The notes: a model not told the origin generated them from the letters alone. 64,000 bases of DNA from a virus (IMGVR_UViG_3300042389_001478:1-64000); one strand, 5' to 3'; positions 1 through 44,100 are shown, numbered from the stretch's first letter. Made by a program: numbers and translations.

Positions 1-6
1 TGAGTC

Positions 7-34
7 ATTCTACAGGAGTATCGGCTATTGTCAA
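7..34 (-). promoter_or_regulatory. sigma70-type early promoter
   Basis: Minus strand TTGACA-16 bp-TAGAAT with CCGATA in the spacer; its gene lies off the left edge. Confidence 0.7.
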
Positions 35-61
35 TAGATTCGGTAAGAAATTCTCTTTCGT

Positions 62-143
62 CACAATCCTATGCAAGATAAGGACTTACGTCAAATCCGG
101 CTCCCCGCGTCGGCCCTAAGTGCTTGAGCACAAAGGGTTTACG
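62..143 (+). repeat. 82-bp double-dyad element, copy A
   Basis: cacaatcctat-gcaagat-aaggacttacg, 24-bp GC-rich linker, cctaagtgctt-gagcaca-aagggtttacg. The first arm is degenerate. Confidence 0.85.
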
Positions 144-158
144 ACGAGAGATTATTTT

Positions 159-392
159 TTACTCAAAATCAACAAAGATGATTTGAGCATAACCGCGAGG
201 CTTAACGGTATATCCGTCGCCATAGTCAAGTGTATCAGCCTTGACCGCAGTCATACCGGCCAGAGCCTTAGCCTTACGAACAACGCTACGCTGGCTAGCA
301 TTCTTCTTGGGAATGAATTCATAACGATTCACCCAACCAAAGTTAGCTTCGCCATTGAAAACATCCGTGTGTGTAACTAAAACTTTCATCAA
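159..392 (-). CDS. small phage hypothetical protein
   Basis: 77-aa ORF in the strand of the early region; TDVFNGEANFGWVNR motif resembles a recurrent small phage protein family. Confidence 0.7.
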   Translation of the reverse strand: MMKVLVTHTDVFNGEANFGWVNRYEFIPKKNASQRSVVRKAKALAGMTAVKADTLDYGDGYTVKPRGYAQIIFVDFE

Positions 393-406
393 TTATTCTC
401 CCAAAT

Positions 407-416
407 GGTGTAATAA
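407..416 (+). promoter_or_regulatory. candidate late promoter (GTGTAWWWA motif)
   Basis: GGTGTAATAA 40 nt upstream of the HNH ATG; same motif precedes many structural genes. Confidence 0.5.
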
Positions 417-455
417 ACTAATAGACTCACTACTAAACAATCAAAGGAATTAACA

Positions 456-911
456 ATGCAGACAGAAGACGAAAAAAGAGAAAAGAGAAGAATCCGACAA
501 AAACTCTGGAGAGCTAAGACTAGAAAACAACGAAGGGTCAAAGCAAAAGAATACAGACAAAAAAACAGAGAAAAACTACTAGAACAATCTAAACAAAGAT
601 ACCAAACACATAAAACTAGATACCGAGCATACGCTAAAAAAAACGCCAATCAAAAAAGATTAGAAATCCGCACAAAATTCGATGATCTGATGAAAGACAA
701 GGTTTGTAATAGGTGTAAATTTAGTGACACAAGAGCATTAGTATGGCACCACACCGATCCAAAAACTAAGTCTAATGGAATTGGAACTATGGTCGGAACA
801 GGATCAAATTGGAATAAAATCTTAATAGAAATAGCAAAATGTGAATGTTTATGTGCTAATTGTCATACTATACATCATAAAATTCATTCAACTAAAAAGC
901 ACTTCATTTAA
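456..911 (+). CDS. HNH homing endonuclease
   Basis: Basic N-terminal helix, CxxC (CNRC), HH (WHHTDP) and CANCH motif; opposite strand to all neighbours. Confidence 0.85.
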   Translation: MQTEDEKREKRRIRQKLWRAKTRKQRRVKAKEYRQKNREKLLEQSKQRYQTHKTRYRAYAKKNANQKRLEIRTKFDDLMKDKVCNRCKFSDTRALVWHHTDPKTKSNGIGTMVGTGSNWNKILIEIAKCECLCANCHTIHHKIHSTKKHFI

Positions 912-1041
912 CAAGTTCCTTTGCTTTCATGGTTTCAAGATACAACTGTTCCAACATCTTCACACGGCTCACTGCACGATTAGCTTCACGATCCATAAGC
1001 ATAACTGCTTTCTGGTGTGCTGTCAATTCTTTCTTTTTCAT
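904..1041 (-). CDS. 45-aa hypothetical protein (not in ORF track)
   Basis: MKKKELTAHQKAVMLMDREANRAV...ELVK; lies downstream of the promoter at 1088-1115; three further in-frame ATGs up to 1059. Confidence 0.6.
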   Translation of the reverse strand: MKKKELTAHQKAVMLMDREANRAVSRVKMLEQLYLETMKAKELVK

Positions 1042-1087
1042 TTTCATTTTCATTTTCATTTGCTTTCTCTTTTCTTCTTATATCGAC

Positions 1088-1115
1088 ATTTTACCACAAA
1101 AATCTTAGCTGTCAA
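1088..1115 (-). promoter_or_regulatory. sigma70-type early promoter
   Basis: TTGACA-16-TAAAAT with extended TG, followed by GTCGATA. Confidence 0.75.
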
Positions 1116-1326
1116 GGCTAATTTCTACTGGCCTATAATGTTTTTGCATAGCCAGCTTCACTTCATTCAAACCACGATAGTGGCCAACATAGGTCAATTC
1201 TGGTTGCAGATAATACAGAACGAAATGATTCCAGTCGAGAGGCTTCGGAATGTAGACCACTCTAAAACCCATCAACCCAGCATCGAACTCCAAATCATCA
1301 ACCTCATTCTTGCTCAACTGTCTCAT
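1105..1326 (-). CDS. hypothetical protein
   Basis: 73-aa ORF tightly packed with neighbours. Confidence 0.7.
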   Translation of the reverse strand: MRQLSKNEVDDLEFDAGLMGFRVVYIPKPLDWNHFVLYYLQPELTYVGHYRGLNEVKLAMQKHYRPVEISLDS

Positions 1327-1328
1327 TT

Positions 1329-1517
1329 TTATTCCTCAATTTCACTTACATAGCACTCACAACCAAACTCATAGCCAGCCTTACGTTTGGCTTCACTCTC
1401 ACTACGACAATCAACAACCGTACCAAGATGCTTGTTGTCGCTCTTGCGATAGACCACATACACTCCCGTATCATGACGATTGTATGGATTAAAACGACCT
1501 TCGTAATACCTACTCAT
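1329..1517 (-). CDS. hypothetical protein
   Basis: 62-aa ORF with GAGAG-type RBS, downstream of promoter 1554-1582. Confidence 0.7.
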   Translation of the reverse strand: MSRYYEGRFNPYNRHDTGVYVVYRKSDNKHLGTVVDCRSESEAKRKAGYEFGCECYVSEIEE

Positions 1518-1553
1518 TCTTCACTCTCTCTTTCTCTAATACCTTATATCGAC

Positions 1554-1582
1554 ATTTTAGCATACGGATCTTTAGCTGTCAA
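1554..1582 (-). promoter_or_regulatory. sigma70-type early promoter
   Basis: TTGACA-17-TAAAAT followed by GTCGATA. Confidence 0.8.
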
Positions 1583-1591
1583 ATGCAAAGT

Positions 1592-1613
1592 TTTCTTGCA
1601 ATGTCGTAAGGTT
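1592..1613. promoter_or_regulatory. 22-bp dyad (operator or stem-loop)
   Basis: tttcttgc-aatgtc-gtaaggtt, 9 bp upstream of the -35. Confidence 0.65.
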
Positions 1614-1615
1614 GA

Positions 1616-1697
1616 TGTAAAGTATTGCGGCGTAAAGACTTACATCAAAATCGGCCCGCCCCGCCAGCCCTAAGTGCTTACACACAAAGGGTTTAGG
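1616..1697 (+). repeat. 82-bp double-dyad element, copy B
   Basis: tgtaaagtatt-gcggcgt-aaagacttaca, 24-bp linker tcaaaatcggcccgccccgccagc, cctaagtgctt-acacaca-aagggtttagg. Confidence 0.9.
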
Positions 1698-1705
1698 GCG
1701 AGTGC

Positions 1706-2104
1706 TTAGAATTTTCCTCCAAAATCTGGACTAATTCCAAGTTGCTCCTGAACATCCTCATCGTCCAAAGTATCCTCATCCATCATGAAATCCAGATCAT
1801 CAAAGAACATTTCCAGTTCTGGCTTACCACGATTACTCAAGAGAATAACAAAATCATATAAGAGAAAATAAGCTGTAGCTTGCGCCCAAGACTCGACACA
1901 TCCTGAGTGAAGTTCGATAGTATCTCTATTAGAGAAGACATATTCGATAGCTGCACACTTGATGTTATCGTCCATATCACACCATACAGGAATTTGTTCA
2001 TTATACTTATTCAGTTCATATGACAACTCGTTATCTTTTTTCCAATACTTATAGTTCTCGTATGTAGCTTCAATTATGCTAGTGGCAATCTTTCGATATT
2101 GCAT
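1706..2104 (-). CDS. hypothetical protein with acidic C-terminus
   Basis: 132-aa ORF; C-terminal DDLDFMMDEDTLDDED tract. Confidence 0.7.
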   Translation of the reverse strand: MQYRKIATSIIEATYENYKYWKKDNELSYELNKYNEQIPVWCDMDDNIKCAAIEYVFSNRDTIELHSGCVESWAQATAYFLLYDFVILLSNRGKPELEMFFDDLDFMMDEDTLDDEDVQEQLGISPDFGGKF

Positions 2105-2121
2105 TATCCGTTTCCTTTCAA

Positions 2122-2397
2122 TTAGTCGTTATATGGGCCGTCTTCATTGTAATCCACAAACCCCACGGCCTCATCGGCGTGGAAATCTTCTACTCCATCG
2201 TCACCATAGTAACCGTAATCCTCGTCGGTTCCCCATCCAGCGGAAGCCAACGCAGATTCAGCATCGCCATCCATACTATCATCAAATGAATCATCAGAAT
2301 CATTCTCCAAGTCGTCATTTCCAGCCCAATAATCATTAGTACGATCATCAGCGTCGATACCATAAAAATCGTCATGATCGTCATACTCGTAGCTCAT
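2122..2397 (-). CDS. extremely acidic protein
   Basis: 91 aa, D/E-dominated, contains DGDAESALASAGWGTDEDYG; start assigned at MSYEYD. Confidence 0.8.
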   Translation of the reverse strand: MSYEYDDHDDFYGIDADDRTNDYWAGNDDLENDSDDSFDDSMDGDAESALASAGWGTDEDYGYYGDDGVEDFHADEAVGFVDYNEDGPYND

Positions 2398-2399
2398 GG

Positions 2400-2471
2400 T
2401 CAATCCCTCACGATAGTAGTAATGTAAAACAAGCCAACATAGCCCACAACGAAAGCAATCGCACTAAGCAT
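2400..2471 (-). CDS. 23-aa single-TM peptide
   Basis: MLSAIAFVVGYVGLFYITTIVRD; ATG overlaps the stop of the upstream ORF. Confidence 0.4.
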   Translation of the reverse strand: MLSAIAFVVGYVGLFYITTIVRD

Positions 2472-2637
2472 TAGTATACTCCTCGGGAACAAATTCGTCA
2501 ACAGCACCCACAACGTCAGCCCAATCCCAAAAGTTGACTTCCACACTAGGATCGTCGATAGGCTCGACCATCGGCTCAACAATCCCCGCTTCGGCCATGT
2601 CGTTCAGAATGTCGTTGATCTCGTCGAAGTTCAGCAT
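2464..2637 (-). CDS. 57-aa acidic protein (not in ORF track)
   Basis: MLNFDEINDILNDMAEAG...EEYTNA; 16 D/E and no K/R; AAGGA RBS; promoter at 2675-2703. Confidence 0.75.
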   Translation of the reverse strand: MLNFDEINDILNDMAEAGIVEPMVEPIDDPSVEVNFWDWADVVGAVDEFVPEEYTNA

Positions 2638-2674
2638 GATTCTGTTCCTTATGGGTTATCGTTCGTGTGCTGTG

Positions 2675-2703
2675 ATTCTACACTTATTATCGGCCAGTGT
2701 CAA
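2675..2703 (-). promoter_or_regulatory. sigma70-type early promoter
   Basis: TTGACA-17-TAGAAT with CCGATA in the spacer. Confidence 0.8.
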
Positions 2704-2765
2704 GCACCAACTTAGAAAATTCTGGAATATAATTCCATGCCAAAGATGAAAAATTTTGAAGTTGA

Positions 2766-2847
2766 CGTAAAGTGTTGGTAGATAAAGACTTACGCTTCGC
2801 GGGGCGGGCCGGACTCGACGTAAGTCCTTACAGATGAAGGAGATACG
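2766..2847 (-). repeat. 82-bp double-dyad element, copy C (inverted)
   Basis: Same 29-24-29 geometry, but the linker reads ggggcgggcc (reverse complement of ggcccgcccc) and the TTTACG-ending dyad is on the opposite side. Confidence 0.9.
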
Positions 2848-3016
2848 TCATAGCACAACCGATAACAAAACACACCCCCCACAATATGTAGTCACTCGCT
2901 TTCATCATTTTCCTCCATATACATGATATTTGACATACTAGCGTACAGTACAATACCACAAATATAACCGAAAGCGACACTAACGAAATCCAGTTGATAC
3001 ATCCTTGCATCTCCAT
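2828..3016 (-). CDS. small membrane protein
   Basis: 62-aa ORF with two hydrophobic stretches; its 3' end overlaps dyad copy C; start uncertain. Confidence 0.4.
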   Translation of the reverse strand: MEMQGCINWISLVSLSVIFVVLYCTLVCQISCIWRKMMKASDYILWGVCFVIGCAMTYLLHL

Positions 3017-3026
3017 AGTTATTCGG

Positions 3027-3224
3027 TCAATCCCCGTATCCTACCCAGAAATCATCACCCTTATCACTTTTCATAAGAGTATAACCCCTAGATTTCATAT
3101 TCTCATACTCATTTATCCTTTGCCATACTTCGCACAATGTTTCCATAACCTTTAGAAACGCCCCCATAACCCACACAAAAGGATATTCAATCATTCTCAT
3201 AAGCTTTCTCCTGTTCTGCACCAT
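3027..3224 (-). CDS. hypothetical protein
   Basis: 65-aa ORF; true start probably a downstream Met because the promoter at 3223-3251 abuts it. Confidence 0.55.
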   Translation of the reverse strand: MVQNRRKLMRMIEYPFVWVMGAFLKVMETLCEVWQRINEYENMKSRGYTLMKSDKGDDFWVGYGD

Positions 3225-3251
3225 TCTATACTATTGTTATCGGTTCGTCAA
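3223..3251 (-). promoter_or_regulatory. sigma70-type early promoter
   Basis: TTGACG-17-TAGAAT with CCGATA in the spacer. Confidence 0.75.
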
Positions 3252-3324
3252 GGGCTCTGACTTTAGGCTGACTATACCCACCCATCCCAAATCCAGAGGA
3301 TTAGGAGAGACTAACGATCCTTTT

Positions 3325-3498
3325 TTACTTAGCAGCCAGCAACATAGATTCTTCACGCCACCGACGCAATAGTTCTGTTGCAAGATAGGAAATGTGCTGC
3401 TTCCTCAGTTCGATCATTTCGGGATCAGTATCCCTAGATAGCCTGACCTGTTCAAGCCACAAATTGTCTTGCAAAACCCTAGTGGAAAATTGTTTCAT
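3325..3498 (-). CDS. 57-aa hypothetical protein (not in ORF track)
   Basis: MKQFSTRVLQDNLWLEQV...LLAAK; TATAAT box at 3527-3532 upstream. Confidence 0.6.
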   Translation of the reverse strand: MKQFSTRVLQDNLWLEQVRLSRDTDPEMIELRKQHISYLATELLRRWREESMLLAAK

Positions 3499-3559
3499 CT
3501 TAATTCTTTCTTTCTTTTATCCTATCATTATACCAAACTTTTCCGCCGCCGCCAACCCC

Positions 3560-3832
3560 TCAATTGGGGGAGTATGGCATATTCCTCAGACGAGTCTTAG
3601 CCGGAGTTTCACCGGGTCGCGGCATAGACTGGAAATACTTTTGCCACAGACTATCCATCACGAACTGGACAACACGATCATGAGTACCACGACAAACGTA
3701 GTATCCCATGTGAATGTCGAACAGAGCAAACGATCCATCTGCTTGGGGATGGTAGGTAAATCCACACTTGTAGGCATAGCCTTGAATCTTACCCTTGACA
3801 GTTGCAATCTTTGGAGGCTTTCTCATTTTCAT
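3560..3832 (-). CDS. hypothetical protein
   Basis: Start reassigned to MKMRKPPK because a consensus promoter occupies 3855-3883. Confidence 0.7.
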   Translation of the reverse strand: MKMRKPPKIATVKGKIQGYAYKCGFTYHPQADGSFALFDIHMGYYVCRGTHDRVVQFVMDSLWQKYFQSMPRPGETPAKTRLRNMPYSPN

Positions 3833-3854
3833 TCCTTTTCTTTCTTGTCCTATC

Positions 3855-3883
3855 ATTATACCATTATTATCGTCCAATGTCAA
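3855..3883 (-). promoter_or_regulatory. sigma70 consensus promoter
   Basis: Perfect TTGACA-17-TATAAT with CGATA in the spacer. Confidence 0.9.
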
Positions 3884-3903
3884 TAGGGTAGACCAGAAAA
3901 AAT

Positions 3904-3925
3904 TTTCTTACAAAGCTGTAAGGTT
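3904..3925. promoter_or_regulatory. 22-bp dyad
   Basis: tttcttac-aaagct-gtaaggtt. Confidence 0.65.
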
Positions 3926-3937
3926 TGTGGTTAGTTT

Positions 3938-3997
3938 TGGCACAGTATTTGCTATATGCAATTTTCATGCCAAAAAAGTCTGGCATAGCATTTGCTA
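3938..3997. promoter_or_regulatory. cluster of three sigma54 (-24/-12) consensus boxes
   Basis: Plus strand TGGCACAGTATTTGCTA 3938-3954 and TGGCATAGCATTTGCTA 3981-3997; minus strand TGGCATGAAAATTGCA 3957-3972; all GG-N10-GC. Confidence 0.75.
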
Positions 3998-4008
3998 TGA
4001 AGATTCAT

Positions 4009-4090
4009 CGTAAGTTGTTACTACGTAAGCACTTACGTCAAACGCGGCCCGCCCGCCTAGTCGTAAGTCCTTTGGCAGCAAGGGTTTACG
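4009..4090 (+). repeat. 82-bp double-dyad element, copy D
   Basis: cgtaagttgtt-actacgt-aagcacttacg, 24-bp linker, cgtaagtcctt-tggcagc-aagggtttacg. Confidence 0.95.
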
Positions 4091-4227
4091 TCAAGTTTTG
4101 CGTTTCCTGTATATTCGTTCAGTACCCACCCAAACGGGGAGGTATAGCTTAGGGTATAGCTGTACATACGTACTCTTTACCAATCTCTCAGTCTCTAGTG
4201 TAACGTCGTACACTAGTGTAGTATCGT

Positions 4228-4605
4228 TCACTCATCTTCTCCCTTGAAGCTGAACGGACTGAGTTCAAGGTGAGCAACCGCACCATACTGCTTTGTCAGT
4301 TCCTCGACACGTTCACGCGAACCCGGCTTACCAACTGGAACGATCATGGTATCTTGTCCCCCTACATAGCGGGGATTAGCCTTTTCCTTGCGAACCTTTC
4401 CCAGATTCTTCAAGGCAGTACGGTTGAACTTGATAACCTTCTCGCTCACAACGTATCGCTTCTGATCGGTCACGCCATAGACGTAATCGGTATCTTCTGT
4501 GATTCGATCATCGGGAATTTCGACCAGCATCGGGATTGCAATACCCTTGAAAATCATACGGGCTTGACGCTTGGCATTTTCGATGATGGGGAACTTGGTT
4601 TTCAT
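4228..4605 (-). CDS. hypothetical protein
   Basis: Start reassigned to MKTKFP (purine-rich RBS; TATAAT at 4646-4651). Confidence 0.75.
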   Translation of the reverse strand: MKTKFPIIENAKRQARMIFKGIAIPMLVEIPDDRITEDTDYVYGVTDQKRYVVSEKVIKFNRTALKNLGKVRKEKANPRYVGGQDTMIVPVGKPGSRERVEELTKQYGAVAHLELSPFSFKGEDE

Positions 4606-4645
4606 TTTCTTTTCTCTCTTAGGTCTATCGTTCTCTTGTATGTGC

Positions 4646-4673
4646 ATTATACCAAACTGTTTTTCAATGTCCA
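4646..4673 (-). promoter_or_regulatory. sigma70-type early promoter
   Basis: TGGACA-16-TATAAT. Confidence 0.6.
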
Positions 4674-4682
4674 GCGAAAAGT

Positions 4683-4704
4683 TTCCTTACAATTCCGTAA
4701 GGTT
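4683..4704. promoter_or_regulatory. 22-bp dyad
   Basis: ttccttac-aattcc-gtaaggtt; abuts the stop codon of the upstream gene. Confidence 0.7.
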
Positions 4705-4970
4705 CATTCTCCCTCATCTTCACCCCATTCGCCATCGTCAAGGCCCGGAATGTAGTCCCCCTCATCGACACAAGCCTCGCACATCATATCATAGTAGAGA
4801 GCGTTTACGTTGTTCAGAATCTGATTCTCTGAACGAATCCACACCCCATCGTGAATCATTTCTTTCGGCTCAACCTTGAAAGACGATCCGGCTTGAATCA
4901 CTCGCACCTTGTGCGAATCCTTACCGAAAACCTGTCGAACACCAGCCATCACTTTGTCGAGCGTAATCAT
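4704..4970 (-). CDS. hypothetical protein with acidic tail
   Basis: Start reassigned to MITLDK; C-terminus DDGEWGEDEGE. Confidence 0.75.
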   Translation of the reverse strand: MITLDKVMAGVRQVFGKDSHKVRVIQAGSSFKVEPKEMIHDGVWIRSENQILNNVNALYYDMMCEACVDEGDYIPGLDDGEWGEDEGE

Positions 4971-5000
4971 TTTTCTTTCTCCTGTTCTTTCTATATCGAC

Positions 5001-5028
5001 ATTATACCAAAGGATATTTAGGTTGCAA
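5001..5028 (-). promoter_or_regulatory. sigma70-type early promoter
   Basis: TTGCAA-16-TATAAT followed by GTCGATA. Confidence 0.75.
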
Positions 5029-5037
5029 GCGAAAAGT

Positions 5038-5059
5038 TTCCTTACAATTTCGTAAGGTT
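5038..5059. promoter_or_regulatory. 22-bp dyad
   Basis: ttccttac-aatttc-gtaaggtt; 5029-5059 is nearly identical to 4674-4704. Confidence 0.7.
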
Positions 5060-5063
5060 GGAT

Positions 5064-5080
5064 TGGCATAGTATTTGCTA
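5064..5080 (+). promoter_or_regulatory. sigma54 consensus box
   Basis: TGGCATAGTATTTGCTA, exactly 11 nt before dyad copy E. Confidence 0.75.
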
Positions 5081-5091
5081 CGAGAATTTGT

Positions 5092-5173
5092 CGTAAGTCT
5101 TTATCTAGCAAGCACTTACGTCAAGCTCGGCCCGCCCCGCTCGTCGTAAGTCGTTACGAGCTAAGGGTTTACG
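5092..5173 (+). repeat. 82-bp double-dyad element, copy E
   Basis: cgtaagtcttt-atctagc-aagcacttacg, linker tcaagctcggcccgccccgctcgt, cgtaagtcgtt-acgagct-aagggtttacg. Confidence 0.95.
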
Positions 5174-5174
5174 T

Positions 5175-5492
5175 CTAGTATATCAGGTTCATATCGGCCA
5201 CAGTCATACCATCTTCATATGGTGTACCATCGTTCAGGTACCATTCGCCTTTCTTCTGATACACACGTACAGGTGAATACTTGTTCATCCTATCCTTGGT
5301 GGTACTCGTATGCCACCCCCCACTATTGAGGGTAGCACTATTGTCGGGATGAATCCTCACAACAGTTGTGCCATGTAGAATAATCCCTACGCTACCATCT
5401 ACAAGAATTTCCGCATAGGTATTGTTGCCAACCTTACGAGTAGTACGCTTAGTCTTACCATGCACCATCTTAGTAGCTTCGAAGTGTGTCAT
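5175..5492 (-). CDS. conserved-looking phage hypothetical protein
   Basis: 105 aa with LHGTTVV...SGGWHTSTTKDRMN motif typical of a recurring phage early protein. Confidence 0.8.
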   Translation of the reverse strand: MTHFEATKMVHGKTKRTTRKVGNNTYAEILVDGSVGIILHGTTVVRIHPDNSATLNSGGWHTSTTKDRMNKYSPVRVYQKKGEWYLNDGTPYEDGMTVADMNLIY

Positions 5493-5515
5493 ATTCTTTT
5501 CTTTCCTTTTTGGAG

Positions 5516-5629
5516 TTAGTCGTTCAGCATGGAATGGATAGCGTTACCAATCTCATGCACAGTGTAGGTGATAAAGGCACAGCCCGTAATCAGGGCAAAC
5601 AGCTGAACATATTCGATAGTCGTAATCAT
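5516..5629 (-). CDS. 37-aa membrane peptide (not in ORF track)
   Basis: MITTIEYVQLFALITGCAFITYTVHEIGNAIHSMLND fills the gap between two genes. Confidence 0.55.
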   Translation of the reverse strand: MITTIEYVQLFALITGCAFITYTVHEIGNAIHSMLND

Positions 5630-5639
5630 TAGAAGTCTT

Positions 5640-5837
5640 TCAATATTTGATAAGCTGATTTGCAACATTAAACCGAATCAATCCAGATACACTACGATTA
5701 GCCAAGAGGCTATCGGTAACATTCTTTCCATCCCGTAGGATGGTTTGAATCACAAAGGAACCACTAGGATAAACCTTGAAGGTTGCAGTGGTGTTGCCAA
5801 ACTTCATCGTATGCCAAGTTTCGTATCCAAAATTCAT
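5640..5837 (-). CDS. hypothetical protein
   Basis: 65-aa ORF downstream of promoter 5866-5895. Confidence 0.65.
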   Translation of the reverse strand: MNFGYETWHTMKFGNTTATFKVYPSGSFVIQTILRDGKNVTDSLLANRSVSGLIRFNVANQLIKY

Positions 5838-5865
5838 TTTCTTTTTCCTTTTCTCTTGTTTCTCT

Positions 5866-5895
5866 ATTATACAGTATCGGTTATTCTCTTGTCAA
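5866..5895 (-). promoter_or_regulatory. sigma70-type early promoter
   Basis: TTGACA-18-TATAAT with CCGATA in the spacer. Confidence 0.8.
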
Positions 5896-5901
5896 CTCTT
5901 G

Positions 5902-5923
5902 AACCTTGCAATATCGTAAGGTT
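5902..5923. promoter_or_regulatory. 22-bp dyad
   Basis: aaccttgc-aatatc-gtaaggtt; overlaps the stop of the upstream gene. Confidence 0.7.
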
Positions 5924-6126
5924 CAGATTCTCCACTCAACAAACTTGAGGGTGAACACTTGACCAGGATATTTGCTAGCGATATACGCTTGTGCAGTTTC
6001 CTTACGGTTATCGTCAGCACTAACGCCTTGAACAACCTTTCCATCAATCGTCACACTCCAAATCTTACGCTTACGAATCCTAGGGAGCGAAGCGATGAAA
6101 CCGTTGATGCTAGTAGTCTTTTCCAT
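5923..6126 (-). CDS. hypothetical protein
   Basis: Start reassigned to MEKTTS; promoter at 6169-6196. Confidence 0.7.
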   Translation of the reverse strand: MEKTTSINGFIASLPRIRKRKIWSVTIDGKVVQGVSADDNRKETAQAYIASKYPGQVFTLKFVEWRI

Positions 6127-6168
6127 TTTTCTTTTTCTCTTTCTTTCTCTCTTACTTCTTATATCGAC

Positions 6169-6196
6169 ATTATACCATCGATTCTTTAGATTGCAA
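6169..6196 (-). promoter_or_regulatory. sigma70-type early promoter
   Basis: TTGCAA-16-TATAAT-GTCGATA; region is near-identical to 7268-7312. Confidence 0.75.
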
Positions 6197-6260
6197 GAGA
6201 AAAATTTCAAGAATATTGTCAAGAGATTTTGACAAAACTTTTCTCAATTTTGAATACGAT

Positions 6261-6304
6261 TGGCACAGTATTTGCTACGTGCAATTATGGCACAGCATTT
6301 GCTA
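6261..6304 (+). promoter_or_regulatory. two tandem sigma54 consensus boxes
   Basis: TGGCACAGTATTTGCTA 6261-6277 and TGGCACAGCATTTGCTA 6288-6304; the second is 11 nt before dyad copy F. Confidence 0.75.
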
Positions 6305-6315
6305 TGCTGATTCGT

Positions 6316-6397
6316 CGTAAGTCGTTATCTCATAAACACTTACGTCGATTTTGGCGCCGCAAATTTGTCGTAAGTCGTTTAGCAGCAAGGGTTTACG
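6316..6397 (+). repeat. 82-bp double-dyad element, copy F
   Basis: cgtaagtcgtt-atctcat-aaacacttacg, 24-bp linker, cgtaagtcgtt-tagcagc-aagggtttacg. Confidence 0.95.
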
Positions 6398-6492
6398 TCA
6401 AGTCTGCTAGTGTACAAGCATATTCCCTATAACCATGCCCAGTCTGTACATAAGAACAGTTAGTAGTATACATCCGATCATATCTACAACAA

Positions 6493-6672
6493 TCATACAA
6501 GCGCCTCCGCCTTAGCCTGTAGAGATTCCACAAGTGCCCAGCATTCATTGAACGTGATATGTCGAGCGATCACCACTCCACCATACCATACCTCATAGCG
6601 ATCACCAGCACGATTCGAAGTATTCCAGTAGATCATTTTTTCTTCGTAGTATTTTGTATCGTTCGTATTCAT
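6493..6672 (-). CDS. hypothetical protein
   Basis: Start reassigned to MNTNDTK (AAGG RBS; promoter 6695-6723). Confidence 0.65.
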   Translation of the reverse strand: MNTNDTKYYEEKMIYWNTSNRAGDRYEVWYGGVVIARHITFNECWALVESLQAKAEALV

Positions 6673-6694
6673 CGCTTGGTTTCCTTGTGCTTGT

Positions 6695-6723
6695 ATTCTA
6701 TACATCGGCCGTTTAGCTGTCAA
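6695..6723 (-). promoter_or_regulatory. sigma70-type early promoter
   Basis: TTGACA-17-TAGAAT with CCGAT in the spacer. Confidence 0.8.
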
Positions 6724-6902
6724 GCGTTAGCCAAATATTCACAAGATACACACTTGTCAAGGTACATTGAACGATACCCTACCCCGTCAACCTTCAGGGT
6801 AAACAGCAAACGGTATCCATGCATATACTTGATGGAAACGATTTCTCCAACAAACTTTTCACCCGTTTCGTATTCGACCGCAACATTGTATCCGATTTCC
6901 AT
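6720..6902 (-). CDS. small beta-barrel-like hypothetical protein
   Basis: Start reassigned to MEIGYNVAVEYETGEKFVGEI (SH3/Sm-like pattern); promoter 6942-6969. Confidence 0.65.
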   Translation of the reverse strand: MEIGYNVAVEYETGEKFVGEIVSIKYMHGYRLLFTLKVDGVGYRSMYLDKCVSCEYLANA

Positions 6903-6941
6903 TTTCTTATCCTCTTTAGTGTTCTTCGTTCTTCTGTCTCT

Positions 6942-6969
6942 ATTATACATATCGGCTTTTGGGGGTCAA
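6942..6969 (-). promoter_or_regulatory. sigma70-type early promoter
   Basis: TTGACC-16-TATAAT with CCGATA in the spacer. Confidence 0.75.
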
Positions 6970-6976
6970 TAGCTTG

Positions 6977-6998
6977 AACCTTACAATCTCGTAAGGTT
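6977..6998. promoter_or_regulatory. 22-bp perfect dyad
   Basis: AACCTTAC-aatctc-GTAAGGTT. Confidence 0.75.
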
Positions 6999-7003
6999 GA
7001 GTC

Positions 7004-7237
7004 TCACCGATAGATTCCATCGGAGATAACGTATCCATCGTTATCCACTTCGATGAACTCACCCTCATCGCCCATCGGAAAGAAATATTCGATCATGTTT
7101 CGATTGTTCTTTGCTTCGTCAAGCAATTCACCACCGATTGCATACTCAGTACCAACCAGCGTATCCAGTTCAACCGGATTGTTGTAGAGCACGTTTTCCA
7201 GTTCAACCCGATTCATGATGATTTTCGTATTCTTCAT
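7004..7237 (-). CDS. acidic hypothetical protein
   Basis: 77-aa ORF, D/E rich, RBS AAGGA. Confidence 0.7.
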   Translation of the reverse strand: MKNTKIIMNRVELENVLYNNPVELDTLVGTEYAIGGELLDEAKNNRNMIEYFFPMGDEGEFIEVDNDGYVISDGIYR

Positions 7238-7278
7238 TTTCTTATCCTTCTTTCTTTCTTCTTTTCTCTTATATCGAC

Positions 7279-7306
7279 ATTATACAGAGTATTCTTTAGG
7301 TTTCAA
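7279..7306 (-). promoter_or_regulatory. sigma70-type early promoter
   Basis: TTGAAA-16-TATAAT-GTCGATA. Confidence 0.7.
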
Positions 7307-7371
7307 GAGAAATTTTTGGATTTTTTCAAATATATTTTCATGCCAAACAAAATATTTTTATTTTTATACTT

Positions 7372-7388
7372 TGGAATACCATTTGCGT
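7372..7388 (+). promoter_or_regulatory. degenerate sigma54-like box
   Basis: TGGAATACCATTTGCGT (GG-N10-GC), 10 nt before dyad copy G. Confidence 0.45.
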
Positions 7389-7398
7389 ACATATTTGA

Positions 7399-7480
7399 CG
7401 TAAAGTATTGATACATAAGCACTTACATCAAATTTTCGTGAGTAAACATGCCCTAAGTCGTTACCCAACATGGGGTTAGG
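7399..7480 (+). repeat. 82-bp double-dyad element, copy G
   Basis: cgtaaagtatt-gatacat-aagcacttaca, 24-bp linker, cctaagtcgtt-acccaac-atggggttagg; 7401-7413 TAAAGTATTGATA matches the IHF consensus. Confidence 0.85.
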
Positions 7481-7619
7481 GGTTTTTCTGTTTCTACAGG
7501 ACATTAGACAAAGTTTCCCAAAAAGGCCAGGAGATCCACAAATAGTAAGCACCTCCTAAAATAAATGTAATACCTAAACCTTAATGGTAGCCCCTATGTG
7601 CTTCTTTTGTTTCTATCTG

Positions 7620-10066: not shown

Positions 10067-10234
10067 ATGACTAATCCAGAAATTAATATTGTAGACTCCA
10101 TATTGACCGTAAAAGCTTCTGGTACTGATCTTAATATAAATCACGACCTAGAACTACCTCAAGGAAAGAGCATAGCACAACTATTATATGACCAAGAGAA
10201 CACAGAAATCCCCCAAGAAGAAGAATCCTGCTAA
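10067..10234 (+). CDS. hypothetical protein
   Basis: ATG at 10067 with AGGAGAG RBS; first gene of the plus-strand block. Confidence 0.55.
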   Translation: MTNPEINIVDSILTVKASGTDLNINHDLELPQGKSIAQLLYDQENTEIPQEEESC

Positions 10235-10844
10235 ACTCCCCAAAGGGGTCACAGAGGAGCAATTTTTAGCCGTATTAGACAATATTAGCAAAAGGCTAGG
10301 CCACAAATTCAAATTTGGCTATCACAGCTTTGAGGACATGAAACAACAAGCAGCAATCTTTGCTCTTGAAGGATTAGAAAAATATGATAATAGTCGCCCC
10401 CTAGAAAACTTCTTATGGACCCACGTAAGAAATCGTCTTTTTAATTACAAAAGAGATAACTATCAAAGGCCCGATAAACCCTGCTTAAGCTGTCCTCTAT
10501 ATGATGCTCATTGCAAGGTATCAACTAATCAGTGTTCCGAATATACTGACAAGAATGAGTGTGAATTATTTTCTGCTTGGGAAACTCGCAATAACTCTAA
10601 AAAGAATATTATGAAGCCCGTTGGCATGGAAGAAGTTCACGAAACATCATCCAGGAAACAATCAGAAATTCCAGACATGGTATTTAATCAACAAATTATC
10701 GAATTACTAGATAAACACATACCATCATCATGCCGAGAAACATATCTAAGATTAAAATATGGAGAGAAAATCTACAAGGCCGATATGTTAAAACTACACG
10801 CTGTTATTCAAGAGATACTCAGAGAACACAATTATGAGTACTAA
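10188..10844 (+). CDS. phage sigma70/ECF-like transcription factor (putative late sigma)
   Basis: Region-2-like EDMKQQAAIFALEGLEKYD...FLWTHVRNRLFNYKR; Cys-rich insert; region-4-like C-terminus; sits at the head of the structural operon. Confidence 0.75.
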   Translation: MTKRTQKSPKKKNPAKLPKGVTEEQFLAVLDNISKRLGHKFKFGYHSFEDMKQQAAIFALEGLEKYDNSRPLENFLWTHVRNRLFNYKRDNYQRPDKPCLSCPLYDAHCKVSTNQCSEYTDKNECELFSAWETRNNSKKNIMKPVGMEEVHETSSRKQSEIPDMVFNQQIIELLDKHIPSSCRETYLRLKYGEKIYKADMLKLHAVIQEILREHNYEY

Positions 10845-37662: not shown

Positions 37663-38106
37663 ATGCCAGCAGCTGACTATAATTTTACTATAGAAAAAGG
37701 CACAGCATTTGTTCTTGCATTTGAATATAGAGACGATAATAATATTCCAATTGACATTACCAATTGGTGTGCTAGAATAAGATGGATAGAAGATCAAAGT
37801 CCAGAACCAGTAATTAGAACATTCACCACTAATAATAGAACATCAGAATACGAATTCACCATAGACCCCAAAGTTGGCAAAATTGTATTAAGAATACCAG
37901 CATCACAAACAGTTGCCTATTCCTTTGGATCTGCTAGATACGATTTTGAGCTACAAGAACCAAATGATTTATATAGTGGTGGTGGTAAAAAAATATTTCG
38001 AATTCTTCAAGGAAGCGTATCATTACTTGCAAGAAATGTACCGGGAGACGATGCATTTGGTTGCGACACCAATGTACAAAATGATTGTGGAACATGTAGC
38101 TCATGA
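37663..38106 (+). CDS. fibre adaptor (BppU/LtfC-like), paralog 2
   Basis: YNFTIEKGTAF...IDITNWCAR...YDFELQ...ILQGSV. Confidence 0.6.
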   Translation: MPAADYNFTIEKGTAFVLAFEYRDDNNIPIDITNWCARIRWIEDQSPEPVIRTFTTNNRTSEYEFTIDPKVGKIVLRIPASQTVAYSFGSARYDFELQEPNDLYSGGGKKIFRILQGSVSLLARNVPGDDAFGCDTNVQNDCGTCSS

Positions 38107-41100
38107 GCATAGTACGAATAGAAGAAGAAATACAGCCATTAAAATATCTGGTTATAACACAAGAAAGAGACCCTGAAAGTGTTGTTTCTACCAATGTAAT
38201 TATATCTGATACTAGAGTAAATAGAGTCAATTTAATTTCTATAGAAAAAGGACCCCAAGGAGATACTGGACCACGAGGGGCTCAAGGACCAGCAGGAAAA
38301 GACGGAGCCTCTTTTGAAGTTTTGCCAATTAATAGTGGAGGAACCAATAACACTTCATTTAGTAGTGGTAATATAATATATTATGACGGACACAAGCTAT
38401 CTAGTTCTAACTATTCATTTCAAGATCTACTAAACAACTCTAACACTAATGCTGTTACTGGAGTTTTTGCCGGATCAGGGCTATACAGAGAACTAGCAAA
38501 TAATACCGCTACGCTAGGAATTAATGCTGGAGATGGACTTTCTATTAATGAAGATAACCAAATAATAGTAGATGATACCATTGTTCGTAAAGTCGAGCTG
38601 AGTATTGGAAATATTAGTGGTGTTGTTCCGATAGCTAAAGGAGGCACTAATAATCAAACCTTTAGTAGTAATAGGCTATTATATTATGATGGTTTTAAAA
38701 TAACATCATTTCCATTGGCTACTGGAAGAATACTATTAAGCGGAACAACAATAGACATAATTGCAGGATCAGGATTAACCGGAGGAGGATCTTTATCTTT
38801 GCCCAGCGGATCTGTGGTTCTAAATATTGGTGGATCATCAGACATTCTAGTAGAAAATAACGCCATCTCATTATCAACTACTGGAACACCAGGAACATAT
38901 TCTAGAATTACCACAGATGATAAAGGCAGAGTAGTCTCAGGAAGCAACCTAACAAGATCTGATATTATTAGTATTCTTGGATATACTCCTTGGCATCCAG
39001 GTAATGATGGACAAGACTCTGGATTAGACGCTGATTTGCTTGATGGTAGAGATAGCTCATATTTTACTAATGCAGCCAACTTAACTGGTCTTATAGATTC
39101 AAATATTATTCCATCGTCAGTCGAGCCCGGAGTTTATACAAAGCTTTATATTAATAACAAGGGTATGGTAACTCTTGGAGATAATATGAATTATGGAGAT
39201 GTTGTTTATTCTCTAGGATATCGTCCCGTAAGCACAGCCGGAGATACCATTAATGGACCAATAGAAATTAATGGAGATGCCAGTCTAAATGGAGATAATC
39301 TAACCATCAGAGACAATCTCCCTACGATAGGGACCAACTCTGCGTCAATACTTCCTAGCGACCCTAGGGGTTTTAGTTTTTTATATGGTGGATACACATC
39401 CAAAACTGGAATACTTGCATTTTTTCCAGCAGATAGAGAACTGAGACTCGTTACTAATATTAGTAGTGGCGGAGACTTGAGCGGAGGTGAAAATAGTTTT
39501 ATAGGAGATGTCGATGGCGGAGATCAAAATGCTTTGTATATTACTAATAATGTTAGTGGAGATATTAATGTTGTTCTATTAAGAAGTAAAGCTGATAGTC
39601 TTTACGTTAGCAGAACCGATACTCAGGTCATCAGTGGAGTCAAAACATTTGTTAATGGGGTGCAGGTTAGAGATCAGGTTGTGATTATACCGTCCGTTAA
39701 TCAATCCAACCCTCCTCTTAATGTTGGAAATAACTCCAGGATGGTAGATAGTCTCAATGTGGATTTATTACATGGACACAATGCAGATTATTTCAATAAC
39801 GCTAGCAACATGACCGGACTATTTACTTATACTAAAGTCCAATTTGATAATTTAGATGGGACACCAGACTATATTCCTCGTTTTGATAATAGAACCTCTA
39901 ACCCTAGTAGAACAATTAGTAATTCTATCATAAGACAAAAGTCGGACAACACGGCTATTATAATAGAAAATAATGCAAACTTATACGTTGGCTCATCAAA
40001 TAGTGGCTCGTTTTTATCTGACAGTTCTACGGCTGTTGGGCGTAATAATAAAATATATGAAGATAATAGTTTAGCTGTTGGCTATGGTAATGCTATTTCT
40101 GGACAAAATAGCGTAGCGCTAAATTATGGATCTAAGACTTTATCAGATACTTCTATCGCGGCCGGTAAATATGGAGAGACCTGGAATGAAAATCAATTAA
40201 GCTTCGGTGCTTTTTCTGAGTTTAATAATAGTCAAACCATTACTCACGGACAGTATTCAACTATTGCGCTAGGATTAAATAGTACAGAAACTAATGGAGC
40301 ATGGGCCACAATGTCTCCTAATGTCATTTTGCCCAAAGATAAAACTATCGCTTATTCATTAGAAGTATTAATGAATAAAGCAGCAGGTACCGGCGCGGCA
40401 TTTGTTGTATTTGATAGTGGGATTATCAAGAATACCACCTTCAGAAGTCCATCCAACCCCTCTCAGACCATCAATGTCACATCTTCTCTTAAAAATACCA
40501 CCAAAAAAGAAATTTATAACGATTCTCAACAAAGAAGACACTATTATCACTACAGACTAGCAAATATAACCATCATTCAAAATCTTGAAGTAACTGCGTC
40601 TCCTGTTAAAAATATAAGCGGAACTAGCGGTATTGCACAAAATATTAATTCAGAATATAAATATATACCAAAATTTATTAGCAGCATATCTAGCTATTCA
40701 AAGTCAAATGATGGCCATACTGTATTAAATATTCCTAAGCCCATATTTAGTGGATCATTTATACAAAATGAAAATGACTATAGAATCAAAATTAAATCAT
40801 ATGATCATAATATGGTCGCCGGATGTATGGCTAATCTGATGTTTTCATCAGGACTAGCCCGCAACCCAATTTCTAAAAAATATCAGGTTTTAGATATTAT
40901 TGATAAAGATAACTTTCGTGTTAGTGAAAATTTTGCTAGTGGATATCTAACAGATAACGAAATAACTATAGATCCACAGAGTATTTCATTGGTTGATGAG
41001 GCTAATTCTATAGTAATCTCTGGTGGATATCTATATACTAATTCACCAGATATGTATAATATGCCTATTAATGCTATGACCGTACTACATACTGGTATGA

Positions 41101-44100
41101 AAGTACGATTTAGGCCATATGAGTCCCTATATCCAAGCATCAACGAACAAACAGGGATTATTGTCGCATTAACAAATAGTAGCGTTACTTTTAATGTTCC
41201 TTTTACTGGGGTCTTTAATTCTTCTAGCGTCAACACCCCGTCCGTATTAAGGTTTAACTCATACACAGACCACACCTTGAGCTCTTGCTCAAAATTATAT
41301 CTAAGTATTGAAGGATATGGACAGCAGTCAGTCTTTAGAACCTCTGGATCATACCCAACAACATACTGTGGGCAGCCTACTATAGCTTTTAGAATTTCTG
41401 GGGTTCCACAAAACTTTAGTGGCAATCCCGTCAGAGTTTCTCCAGCATCACTAAATTCAGGACTAGTAAATCTACACAACAAAAGAAGTTTTGATGGATC
41501 GTATTCTAAATTAGCCACATCATTTAAAAAGTATGAAGGCATCTATACTCAATATCCATCTAATGATGGGACTAGCGTTTTAAGTATCTTTAACAAGAAC
41601 CTAGAGCACATAACCTTACCTTCTATGCCTTTTTCATATTCTTTGGTATGCGGCTATGGAGACACCGACAACAGCTTTTTTCGTGTTAGTGGGGATTATT
41701 TAGTTTCTAAGCAGGCATTTAATTTTGAAGAGCAAGCAACCCGCACTGTTAGAATTAGAACCACGGACATGTCTGGACAATTTTTAGAAAAATCTTTTAG
41801 AATCAATATATTAAATATGGATGAAAATCCACTATTAATAAATCCTATACAGGATCAATATTTAACAGTCGATGAATTATGGACTTTTTCAGTTCCGACA
41901 GACACTTTTAGCGACGAGGTTTTTTCGACATCTAAGTCTTATTCTGCTCTTTTGAGCGATAATTCTACGCTACCATCATGGCTTAGTTTTAACCCCAGCA
42001 CAAGAAGCTTTAGTGGAACTCCTTCATTATCTGATACTGGTGTCTTGTCTTTAAAAGTGAATGCTCTTTACTATGGCGGTCTATCAGCGCAGGATACTTT
42101 TAATATACATATTAATGAGCCAGGTTTAAACACCTTTGACTACAGCATTCAGTCTGTTGATGATGATAGTCCTCTAAAGATCACAAATCTTAATTTATCA
42201 CAAATTACAATACCAGAAAACATGCCTTCAGGATCAATCATAGGCAAACTAGACACAGCCGGAGGATATGCTCCCCATCTAATATTTCAAACGGCTTCGA
42301 ATAGTTTTAGCGGAGTACTGATCAACAATAGCAATATAATAAGCGAGTGCGCTTCATTTAGTGTGAATTATCCTACAACCACCTTGCTGGGTAGGCTGGA
42401 TACTATCTATACTGGAATGCCGCTGTCCGCATCGAATGGTCTGTCATCAGCCACAGTTACGGGAATTTTAGATTCTATAGTAGCAATCAATGGATACACA
42501 AGTAGTGGGTCAAATCGAGTTTGTGTTCCTAGCATGACATTTCCAGACCTACAATATATTTCCGGCATTCGGTTTGTTTCTTCTCTTTCTGGATGGAATA
42601 ATCAAGCAAGAGTCGCTAATACTGGGCAGAATTTTATCACATTTGATAGAACAGCTTTTAGCGGAAACACGGACTCTGCTTCAAATAAATTTAGCGGCGT
42701 ACTCATTAATAATAGCAACATAATAAGTGAGTGTGCTTCAGTACTTGGTAATCTAAATACTCTGGTTGTCGGAATGCCATTATCGACAAATAGCGACCTA
42801 TCATCAGCCGCAGTTACGGGAATTTTAGATAATATAGTAGAAATTGACGGATATGTAAGTAGTGGATCTTATTCCATTTCGGGTATAACTCCCCCAGATT
42901 TGCAATATATTTCCGGCGTTAGATTTGTATCTTCTCTTCCTGAATGGAATAACGAGGCTAGGGTTGTTAATACCGGAGAGAATTCTCTTATATTTGACGT
43001 TGCCTTTACTGGGACCGGAATTGATACGGCTATTACTGTAAATAATATTGGTAAGCGAATTCTTTTAGACACAAGATATCAAGGACAATCACTATCTGGA
43101 CTAATAACTTATACAGCTATTACTATAAATAATATTGGGAAGCGAATTCTTTTGGATACAACATATCAAGGAACATCACGATCCGGAATAATAACTTATA
43201 CAGCTGAACTTCCGAATGATGCTGAGTACTATCCAAGTGGATTACAATATTTCTCTCGGTCATCAATAGAAGGATGGTGCCCAACAACCATTTCAAAGTC
43301 TTATATTAAAGGATTTCAATCCGAAACCCCTCAATATGCACAATCAACTGGTCACTATGCTACCGGCATCGTATCCTTCTATACTAGTGCTGGATACAAC
43401 AGAATAACTATTAATACGAATGAATATACTAATATCGAACCCGATGAAGATAGTATCTTTATTAATTATTTAGATATAAATCTTGGAGACATTCCAACAG
43501 ATAAGCCATATTCTAGAATTAGTGGATATGACAATCCGTTGTCTTTTATGACACATAGCTTATCGTGGTATCCAGACTCTGGAGTGTTGGGAACAGGTAG
43601 ATTAATATTAAACTTAGATCAAAATCATGGCTATAAAATATTAGATCCCAAAATTTTAAATCAGATCCCCGTACGGTTCGATTCTTGCATTAATAACAAC
43701 AGCAATCGTAGACCCAAAGATAATTTATTTGATATTTTAGCTATTACTGGAAATAAAATAACCATAAAAGATAGTCAAAACTATTTACTAAAAGAAAATG
43801 GCAGACCCGACTATTTTGAACAGCCAATAAAAGCACAATATTCTACAAACGGTTTTCATTTTAGTGGTACAATAGTTAGTGGATCTAATTTATTATATGA
43901 TTGTAGTAGTAATAAAATTTATGATTTACAAAAAAATATGATTTTAGGGTCTTCTTCTTTTAGGGACTACCCACACGTAGTAAGGTTTGATTCTATAGTA
44001 TCGACCGGAACTACCTTCACCGCCACCCTGTATGGTGGACAAAGTATTTTAACGACGACCCCCGGACAACCCATATACATTAATCAGAAGCTATACTCTT

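Follow-up and report, generated by a model that had tools for sequence, protein, structure and literature searches.

Why a phage should set sites of the sigma-54 promoter type between its early genes, and mostly against them, is the question raised by the DNA described here. The window, a stretch of 64,000 nucleotides, covers the opening 64 kb of IMGVR_UViG_3300042389_001478, an IMG/VR phage record of 192,497 bp that is rated complete; to this uncultured phage genome, cultured phages gave no DNA match, near or distant. Its early-type region (positions 1-7500) consists of small minus-strand open reading frames (ORFs) separated by repeated cassettes, and in these cassettes stands a 17-nt box with the layout of a -24/-12 promoter, in many cases beside paired inverted repeats that we call double dyads. 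To judge from sequence comparison, the boxes are very probably genuine -24/-12 recognition sites for host sigma-54 (RpoN), and our preferred but tentative reading is that they would act as activator-gated antisense or bidirectional promoters, at a probability of roughly 0.45.

The 17-mer TGGCAY-AGY-ATTTGCTA was found on the + strand at 3938, 3981, 5064, 6261 and 6288 with 0 mismatches, exactly as an earlier note on this DNA had listed it, and this count of five was matched by 0/100 dinucleotide shuffles. No further copy within 2 mismatches is present in the 192,497-bp genome. A search of the whole genome with the looser core TGGCAY-N5-TTGC added just one minus-strand box, TGGCATGAAAATTGC at 3972-3958, which is the core of the minus-strand box that the same note had placed near 3957-3972 and shows that box to be real. 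The six TGGCAY-N5-TTGC boxes lie inside 2.4 kb, with none elsewhere in the 192 kb; base composition gives an estimated chance expectation of ~0.4 such matches per whole genome. In all six, GG and GC are exactly 10 bp apart, as in the sigma-54 consensus TGGCAC-N5-TTGCW.

The boxes were then scored with a position-specific scoring matrix (PSSM) built from 16 intergenic Salmonella sigma-54 sites defined by chromatin immunoprecipitation (PMC3844500). The results showed that the six boxes rank 1-6 among 384,960 phage-genome positions, with scores of 15.9-22.2 as compared with 17.4-22.7 for the training sites, and that the next match is one without TTGC. In parallel, viral contigs were scanned with the exact 17-mer, which returned more than 116 loci; about 45 of these are relatives with a box beside CGTAAGT dyads. 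A conservation logo made from 30 distinct boxes of relatives, with the dyad and not the box as anchor, showed G2, G3, A5, T11-T13, G14 and C15 to be invariant or nearly so, with 1.8-2.0 bits at positions 2, 3, 5 and 11-15 and 0.3-0.7 bits at positions 8, 9 and 17; position 16 is T in 23/30 and C in 1/30. The conservation of GG and GC among relatives, which the earlier note had named as a test, was thus examined and found to hold. Among relatives the box sequence is held exact while its flanks diverge, and since GG/TTGC stays invariant while spacer and flanks change, the bases contacted by sigma-54 appear to be under purifying selection. Five complete relatives of 223-238 kb, three of them with terminal repeats, gave the same picture: matches to TGGYAY-N5-TTGC are clustered in one zone of ~6 kb (for example 8/11 in relative G001 and 7/9 in G002), their spacer sequence varies from box to box, and a reversed-pattern control yielded 0-1 matches. 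Together, the PSSM ranking, the conservation in relatives and the variability of the spacer strongly support the sigma-54 identity that the note had proposed. The extended box motif also occurs in bacterial genomes of many phyla, at apparently ordinary promoter-like sites.

The arrangement of the boxes is best followed from left to right. The box at 3938..3954 (+; TGGCAC-N5-TTGCTA, an exact match; PSSM 21.6, rank 2/384,960) is the left half of a face-to-face pair, the other half being the box at 3956..3972 (-; TGGCAT-N5-TTGCAT; PSSM 19.7, rank 4), which faces it at a 1-nt gap and is the only one of the six oriented like the early genes. The box at 3981..3997 (+; exact match; PSSM 21.1) follows 26 nt after the 3938 box and precedes by 11 nt double dyad D (4009..4097; repeat family D1/D2, nhmmer 84.8 bits, and folding), which consists of two 29-bp dyads with arms of the CGTAAGT/ACTTACG type and a GC-rich linker. 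The box at 5064..5080 (+; exact match; PSSM 15.9, rank 6) stands 11 nt before double dyad E (5092..5179), and the box at 6261..6277 (+; exact match; PSSM 17.0) is the first of a tandem pair with a 10-nt gap, the second of which, at 6288..6304 (+; exact match; PSSM 22.2, rank 1), stands 11 nt before double dyad F (6316..6403); dyads E and F were likewise defined by repeat family, nhmmer and folding. The gap from the boxes ending at 3997, 5080 and 6304 to the CGTAAGT arm (4009, 5092 and 6316) is therefore exactly 11 nt in each case. Direct reading of the sequence shows a degenerate box, TGGAAT-N5-TTGCGT (C4 to A), at 7372..7388 (+), 10 nt before double dyad G (7399..7487; repeat family and nhmmer), and this very variant is also seen among the dyad-adjoining boxes of relatives. 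These gaps of 11 and 10 nt agree with those given in the earlier note. The window holds double dyads D, E and F plus four further copies, and it shows every box geometry, in the series 3938 / 3972-3956 / 3981 / dyad D and 6261 / 6288 / dyad F.

A consensus scan of the early region returned 12 strong sigma-70 promoters, all on the minus strand, and only weak matches on the + strand; each of the early minus-strand ORFs lies behind a consensus or near-consensus sigma-70 promoter. The five + boxes are directed at the dyads and at the 3′ ends of genes on the minus strand, which bears out the claim that the + boxes point against the early genes. Read along the early (minus) strand, the full cassette runs from gene stop through double dyad, box or boxes, a small CCTTAC-N6-GTAAGG hairpin and a sigma-70 promoter to the next gene, and the repeats of the early-region cassettes fall into families D1-D20. 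The sigma-70 promoter of the gene left of module D lies at 3855..3883 (-; 12/12 consensus matches), and those left of modules E and F, also from the consensus scan, lie at 5001..5028 (-) and 6169..6196 (-). The small CCTTAC..GTAAGG hairpin at 5040-5057 (repeat family D6) is located between the sigma-70 promoter and the box of module E.

Geometry was counted on 122 distinct boxes from related loci. A dyad arm lies 5-13 nt downstream in 38/122, most often at 11 nt (19 boxes) or 6 nt (11 boxes); the fixed 11-nt spacing described in the earlier note thus holds in the window and gives way to a bimodal one in relatives. In 22/122 the box belongs to a face-to-face pair whose members are 0-2 nt apart, usually 1, a tandem box follows downstream in 5/122, the 26-nt and 10-nt tandem gaps being recurrent, and at least 12/122 boxes are followed at 5-6 nt by the small hairpin, beyond which comes a sigma-70 promoter, in early-gene sense. 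When boxes were compared with the strong sigma-70 promoters nearby, 71 proved to be antisense and 39 sense, with 7 left undecided. An antisense box lies within 300 nt of the stop in 11/28 and 9/22 homologues of the genes right of boxes D and E, respectively, as compared with 4/65 other early genes, so that box positions are partly syntenic across relatives; several further early-gene families likewise have boxes upstream.

The dyads often stand without a box: across 45 related loci, 175 distinct double dyads were counted, and only about one third of them have one. CGTAAG/CTTACG is common to all four arms, with the consequence that either two hairpins or one long nested hairpin can be folded, and folding z-scores are about -1.6 to -3.5 on both strands. 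At one arm position the two sides vary almost independently of each other (GC 40, CG 25, CC 34, GG 17), and this suggests that the arms may be sequence-constrained protein half sites rather than obligatory base pairs. No Rfam family matched the dyads at E<=1, and no intrinsic terminator was found after them on either strand, except for one weak small hairpin.

Two further elements accompany the early promoters. The earlier note had reported -24-only remnants near 2737 and 7339; both are present, as minus-strand TGGCATGRAAWTATATT at 2742-2726 and 7345-7329, and belong to a half-box whose conserved form is TGGCAYGRAAYTATATT, with an intact -24 element and TATA replacing TTGC. They are not random remnants: the half-box has 23 distinct copies in related loci, 16/23 of them exactly 39 nt upstream of a sigma-70 -35 hexamer, and given this distance to consensus sigma-70 early promoters it is a separate composite element. 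The second is an inverted repeat, TTGTCAA-N6-TTGACAA, at 6216..6235, with the early sigma-70 promoter on one side and the 6261 box on the other, and with 38 distinct copies in related loci. Its right half begins 32 nt before the box, a distance shared exactly by 17 boxes in related loci (6261 included), and its centre lies ~64 bp upstream of the early sigma-70 start and ~61 bp upstream of the start predicted for the 6261 box; the repeat resembles an operator common to a divergent promoter pair. TTGACA at this 32-nt distance was also considered as a sigma-70 -35 element and was ruled out, as the spacer would be 20 nt, no -10 is conserved, and TTGACA is the right half of the inverted repeat.

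The following model would account for these arrangements. Host sigma-54 holoenzyme would be parked on the boxes in a silent closed complex, which is the normal state of this holoenzyme (PMC3844500; PMC4591121), and would fire only when a host enhancer-binding protein is active; that protein might reach these near-consensus, T-tract-rich sites from solution. Dependence on a host activator is proposed because the phage encodes none. Activators without a DNA-binding domain can fire any sigma-54 closed complex (PMC3844500), and enhancer-free activation is therefore possible in principle. Initiation at sigma-54 promoters needs ATP and an activator and takes place about 12 nt past the GC. With a predicted +1 some 10 nt beyond the box, transcripts of the 11-nt class would start 2 nt short of the dyad, and those of the 6-nt class 4 nt within it. 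Transcripts from the + boxes would run through the dyad and, in antisense, into the 3′ end of the upstream gene driven by sigma-70, opposing its expression, and the minus-strand box at 3956-3972 would fire in the early-gene direction.

Several observations weigh against this model. Sigma-54 promoters depend on a cognate AAA+ enhancer-binding activator, the sites of which are usually located 80-150 bp upstream. The genome search for a bacterial enhancer-binding protein, advised by the earlier note, was carried out and came back empty: neither the phage nor the five relatives carry a gene for such an activator, or an RpoN DNA-binding or core-binding domain, and no recognizable enhancer was seen 80-150 bp upstream of the boxes. 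The sole PF00158 signal was rejected as an activator, being a RuvB-like ATPase (RuvB_N at 7e-45; viral RuvB clusters only). No ORF follows the + boxes, and none of these five has a sense placement upstream of a transcribed gene. Since the 6-nt class places the predicted +1 within a dyad arm, the idea of a neat two-hairpin RNA is weakened. A strand test (G-U versus A-C pairs, and minimum free energy, MFE, of box strand versus complement) gave the box strand no clear preference, the whole dyad element being the more stable there in 17 cases and the less stable in 19; this test is partly circular because a hidden Markov model fixes the orientation of the element. Finally, face-to-face boxes 1 nt apart and tandem boxes 10 nt apart cannot all be occupied or fired simultaneously.

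With regard to what binds the box, the 17-mer might instead be an operator for another phage or host protein, either a dimer on TGGCA-N7-TGCCA or a reader of the GTAAG dyads, its likeness to sigma-54 sites being coincidental. The box does always stand at fixed distances beside other dyads that look like protein sites and whose arms behave as constrained half sites, and the half-box keeps its exact 39-nt position before sigma-70 -35 elements without any TTGC. A palindrome is never completed, however: the pseudo-palindromic operator that the earlier note had raised was tested and found not to be improved in relatives, position 16 being T rather than C, and a palindromic TGGCA-N7-TGCCA operator is ruled out on this basis. 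In addition, unpaired single boxes share the same asymmetric conservation, the spacers differ between the halves of paired boxes, and the top six ranks from an independent sigma-54 PSSM would be a remarkable coincidence, so that an operator of this kind appears very improbable. It is scarcely credible that some boxes are weak sigma-70 promoters with TTGGCA as -35. Such a reading can be made at just two of the six, each with 9/12 positions, namely at + 6260-6288 (TTGGCA, 17-nt spacer, AATTAT, with TG) and at - 3973-3944 (TTGGCA, 18-nt spacer, AATACT); the base preceding TGGCA is not a conserved T (C at 3981, A at 6288), no conserved -10 follows the boxes in relatives, and the invariant TTGC would be left unexplained.

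If sigma-54 does bind, it need not fire. The boxes might be traps holding stable closed complexes that are never activated, which would sequester sigma-54 polymerase as genome copies grow, and so blunt the sigma-54-dependent stress responses of the host, or would occupy and insulate the cassettes. The lack of an activator gene in the phage fits this, as do the scores of the boxes, at the upper end of what real sites reach, their ATTTGC T-tract, and the overlapping face-to-face and tandem layouts, which suit binding better than productive initiation; the face-to-face geometry moreover recurs in at least 120 viral contigs, 73/78 of the fetched loci being unrelated to the phage family, and most E. 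coli sigma-54 holoenzyme is bound yet transcriptionally inactive (PMC4591121). Against this, there are just 6 sites per genome, a sink needs neither strict orientation nor a 6- or 11-nt spacing to a dyad, and as for a roadblock, intragenic sigma-54 binding in E. coli left the expression of overlapping genes unchanged (PMC4591121); we regard traps, the chief alternative, as rather unlikely. That the boxes have no function at all, and are hitch-hikers in recombination-prone cassettes resembling the early promoter/stem-loop elements (PeSLs) of T4-type phages, shuffled between early genes, is an improbable explanation. Boxes are optional, most double dyads doing without one, the cassettes adjoin different genes in different relatives, and promoter/terminator cassettes drive modular shuffling in T4-type phages (PMC2839356; PMC4122927); but the purifying selection evident at GG/TTGC and the paired geometry shared by unrelated phages speak for a function.

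The proposal of activator-gated promoters can be set beside known systems. Bacterial RpoN -24/-12 promoters (Salmonella prpB, hypA and glnK; PMC3844500) have in common with the phage sites the core TGGCAY-N5-TTGC(W), the strict spacing, the invariant GG/GC and the free spacer. Unlike them, the phage sites come without an activator gene and without an enhancer at -80 to -150, and the boxes mostly point against neighbouring genes, without a downstream ORF, and form face-to-face, tandem and dyad-abutting composites. They resemble intragenic and antisense sigma-54 sites of E. coli and Salmonella in not being promoters of the adjacent gene; at those bacterial sites inactive holoenzyme is bound, and antisense RNA, interference or repression have been proposed (PMC4591121; PMC3844500). 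The bacterial intragenic sites are scattered, often weak and mostly sense, whereas the phage boxes are intergenic, near-consensus, clustered and coupled to dyads. The cassettes are also like the PeSLs (PMC2839356; PMC4122927) as repeated composites of an early sigma-70 promoter and a stem-loop between small variable early genes, and the phage cassettes, which flank different genes in relatives, may likewise be substrates of modular shuffling. In contrast to the PeSLs, for which sigma-54 boxes have not been described, the cassettes carry such boxes, and the phage itself, judged by its terminase, shows no T4-type signal. This terminase has its best matches, at only 24% identity, in Bacillus siphophages, with Clostridium phages also matched (tblastn), and matches at this level give no information on the host.

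Among phages, the closest case is Pseudomonas phage YuA, which, as reported in PMC10914365, uses a sigma-54-like promoter (Ceyssens et al., 2008), a single one confirmed by promoter trap and ONT-cappable-seq. YuA is likewise a phage without its own RNA polymerase that combines sigma-70-type and sigma-54-type promoters. Compared with the YuA promoter as reported there, the present sites differ in forming an array of six near-identical consensus boxes, predicted from sequence, confined to the early region, mostly antisense, and conserved across a family of uncultured phages of 190-240 kb. YuA was the only phage with a sigma-54-type promoter found in our literature search, and arrays, pairs and antisense placement were not found there. 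The view of the earlier note that repeated sigma-54 boxes in a phage early region are unusual thus agrees with the literature, but among uncultured phages similar arrays are common. At least 120 viral contigs contain the face-to-face unit TGGCAY-N5-TTGC-N4-6-GCAA-N5-RTGCCA, with roughly one expected by chance (an estimate). As many as 73/78 of the face-to-face loci fetched are without the dyads of the phage family, and within a pair the spacers are unlike, which is what two independent sigma-54 boxes should give. Five unrelated viral contigs (L024, L049, L075, L148 and L208), also without these dyads, have 2-3 face-to-face pairs within 100-1800 bp. The recurrence of the paired geometry suggests that it may be a general but undescribed regulatory device.

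In the usual account of phage early programmes, strong sigma-70 promoters act first and phage-encoded factors take over afterwards. The boxes point to a putative second control layer, dependent on host signals and hardly described in phages. In its widest and more doubtful form, the proposal would be that large uncultured phages carry activator-less consensus sigma-54 arrays as a separate layer of control, in which face-to-face and dyad-abutting units would couple early shut-off to a host stress activator or capture sigma-54 polymerase, and a factor reading the GTAAG dyads would set firing. If true, the phage would read or disable a host pathway that fires only on particular signals, nitrogen limitation, membrane stress and RNA damage among them, and this could be tested with standard sigma-54 biochemistry despite an uncultured host.

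A faint hint as to that host came from a Burkholderiaceae metagenome-assembled genome (MAG; G006, 2.1 Mb), which holds two contigs of ~1 kb from the early region of the phage family (C159 and C161; locus L133). In the genome-contig scan it was the sole bacterial MAG with contigs of this family (a 1.26-kb contig), and it encodes RpoN (1.4e-64); the link to the family rests on binned 1-kb contigs and is weak evidence. No other phage DNA was seen in this MAG, only gmd-like host genes. The phage genome has one tRNA and no tmRNA (ARAGORN).

The structural genes are on the + strand and follow the early region. Where the early arm meets the structural genes lies the + strand ORF 10188-10844, which has its own sigma-70-type promoter and shows a weak Sigma70_r2 match (E 3.6e-4, below the Pfam cut-off); it may encode a phage sigma-70-family factor, and a -24/-12 geometry cannot belong to the promoter class of such a candidate. 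The sole + strand ORF within the early arm, 456-911, gave no Pfam match at E<=0.01; its very basic product has CxxC...HH...CxxC...H spacing and looks like a putative HNH homing endonuclease. Further on, among the structural genes, a single frame of 4221 aa spans positions 38103-50768 (+).

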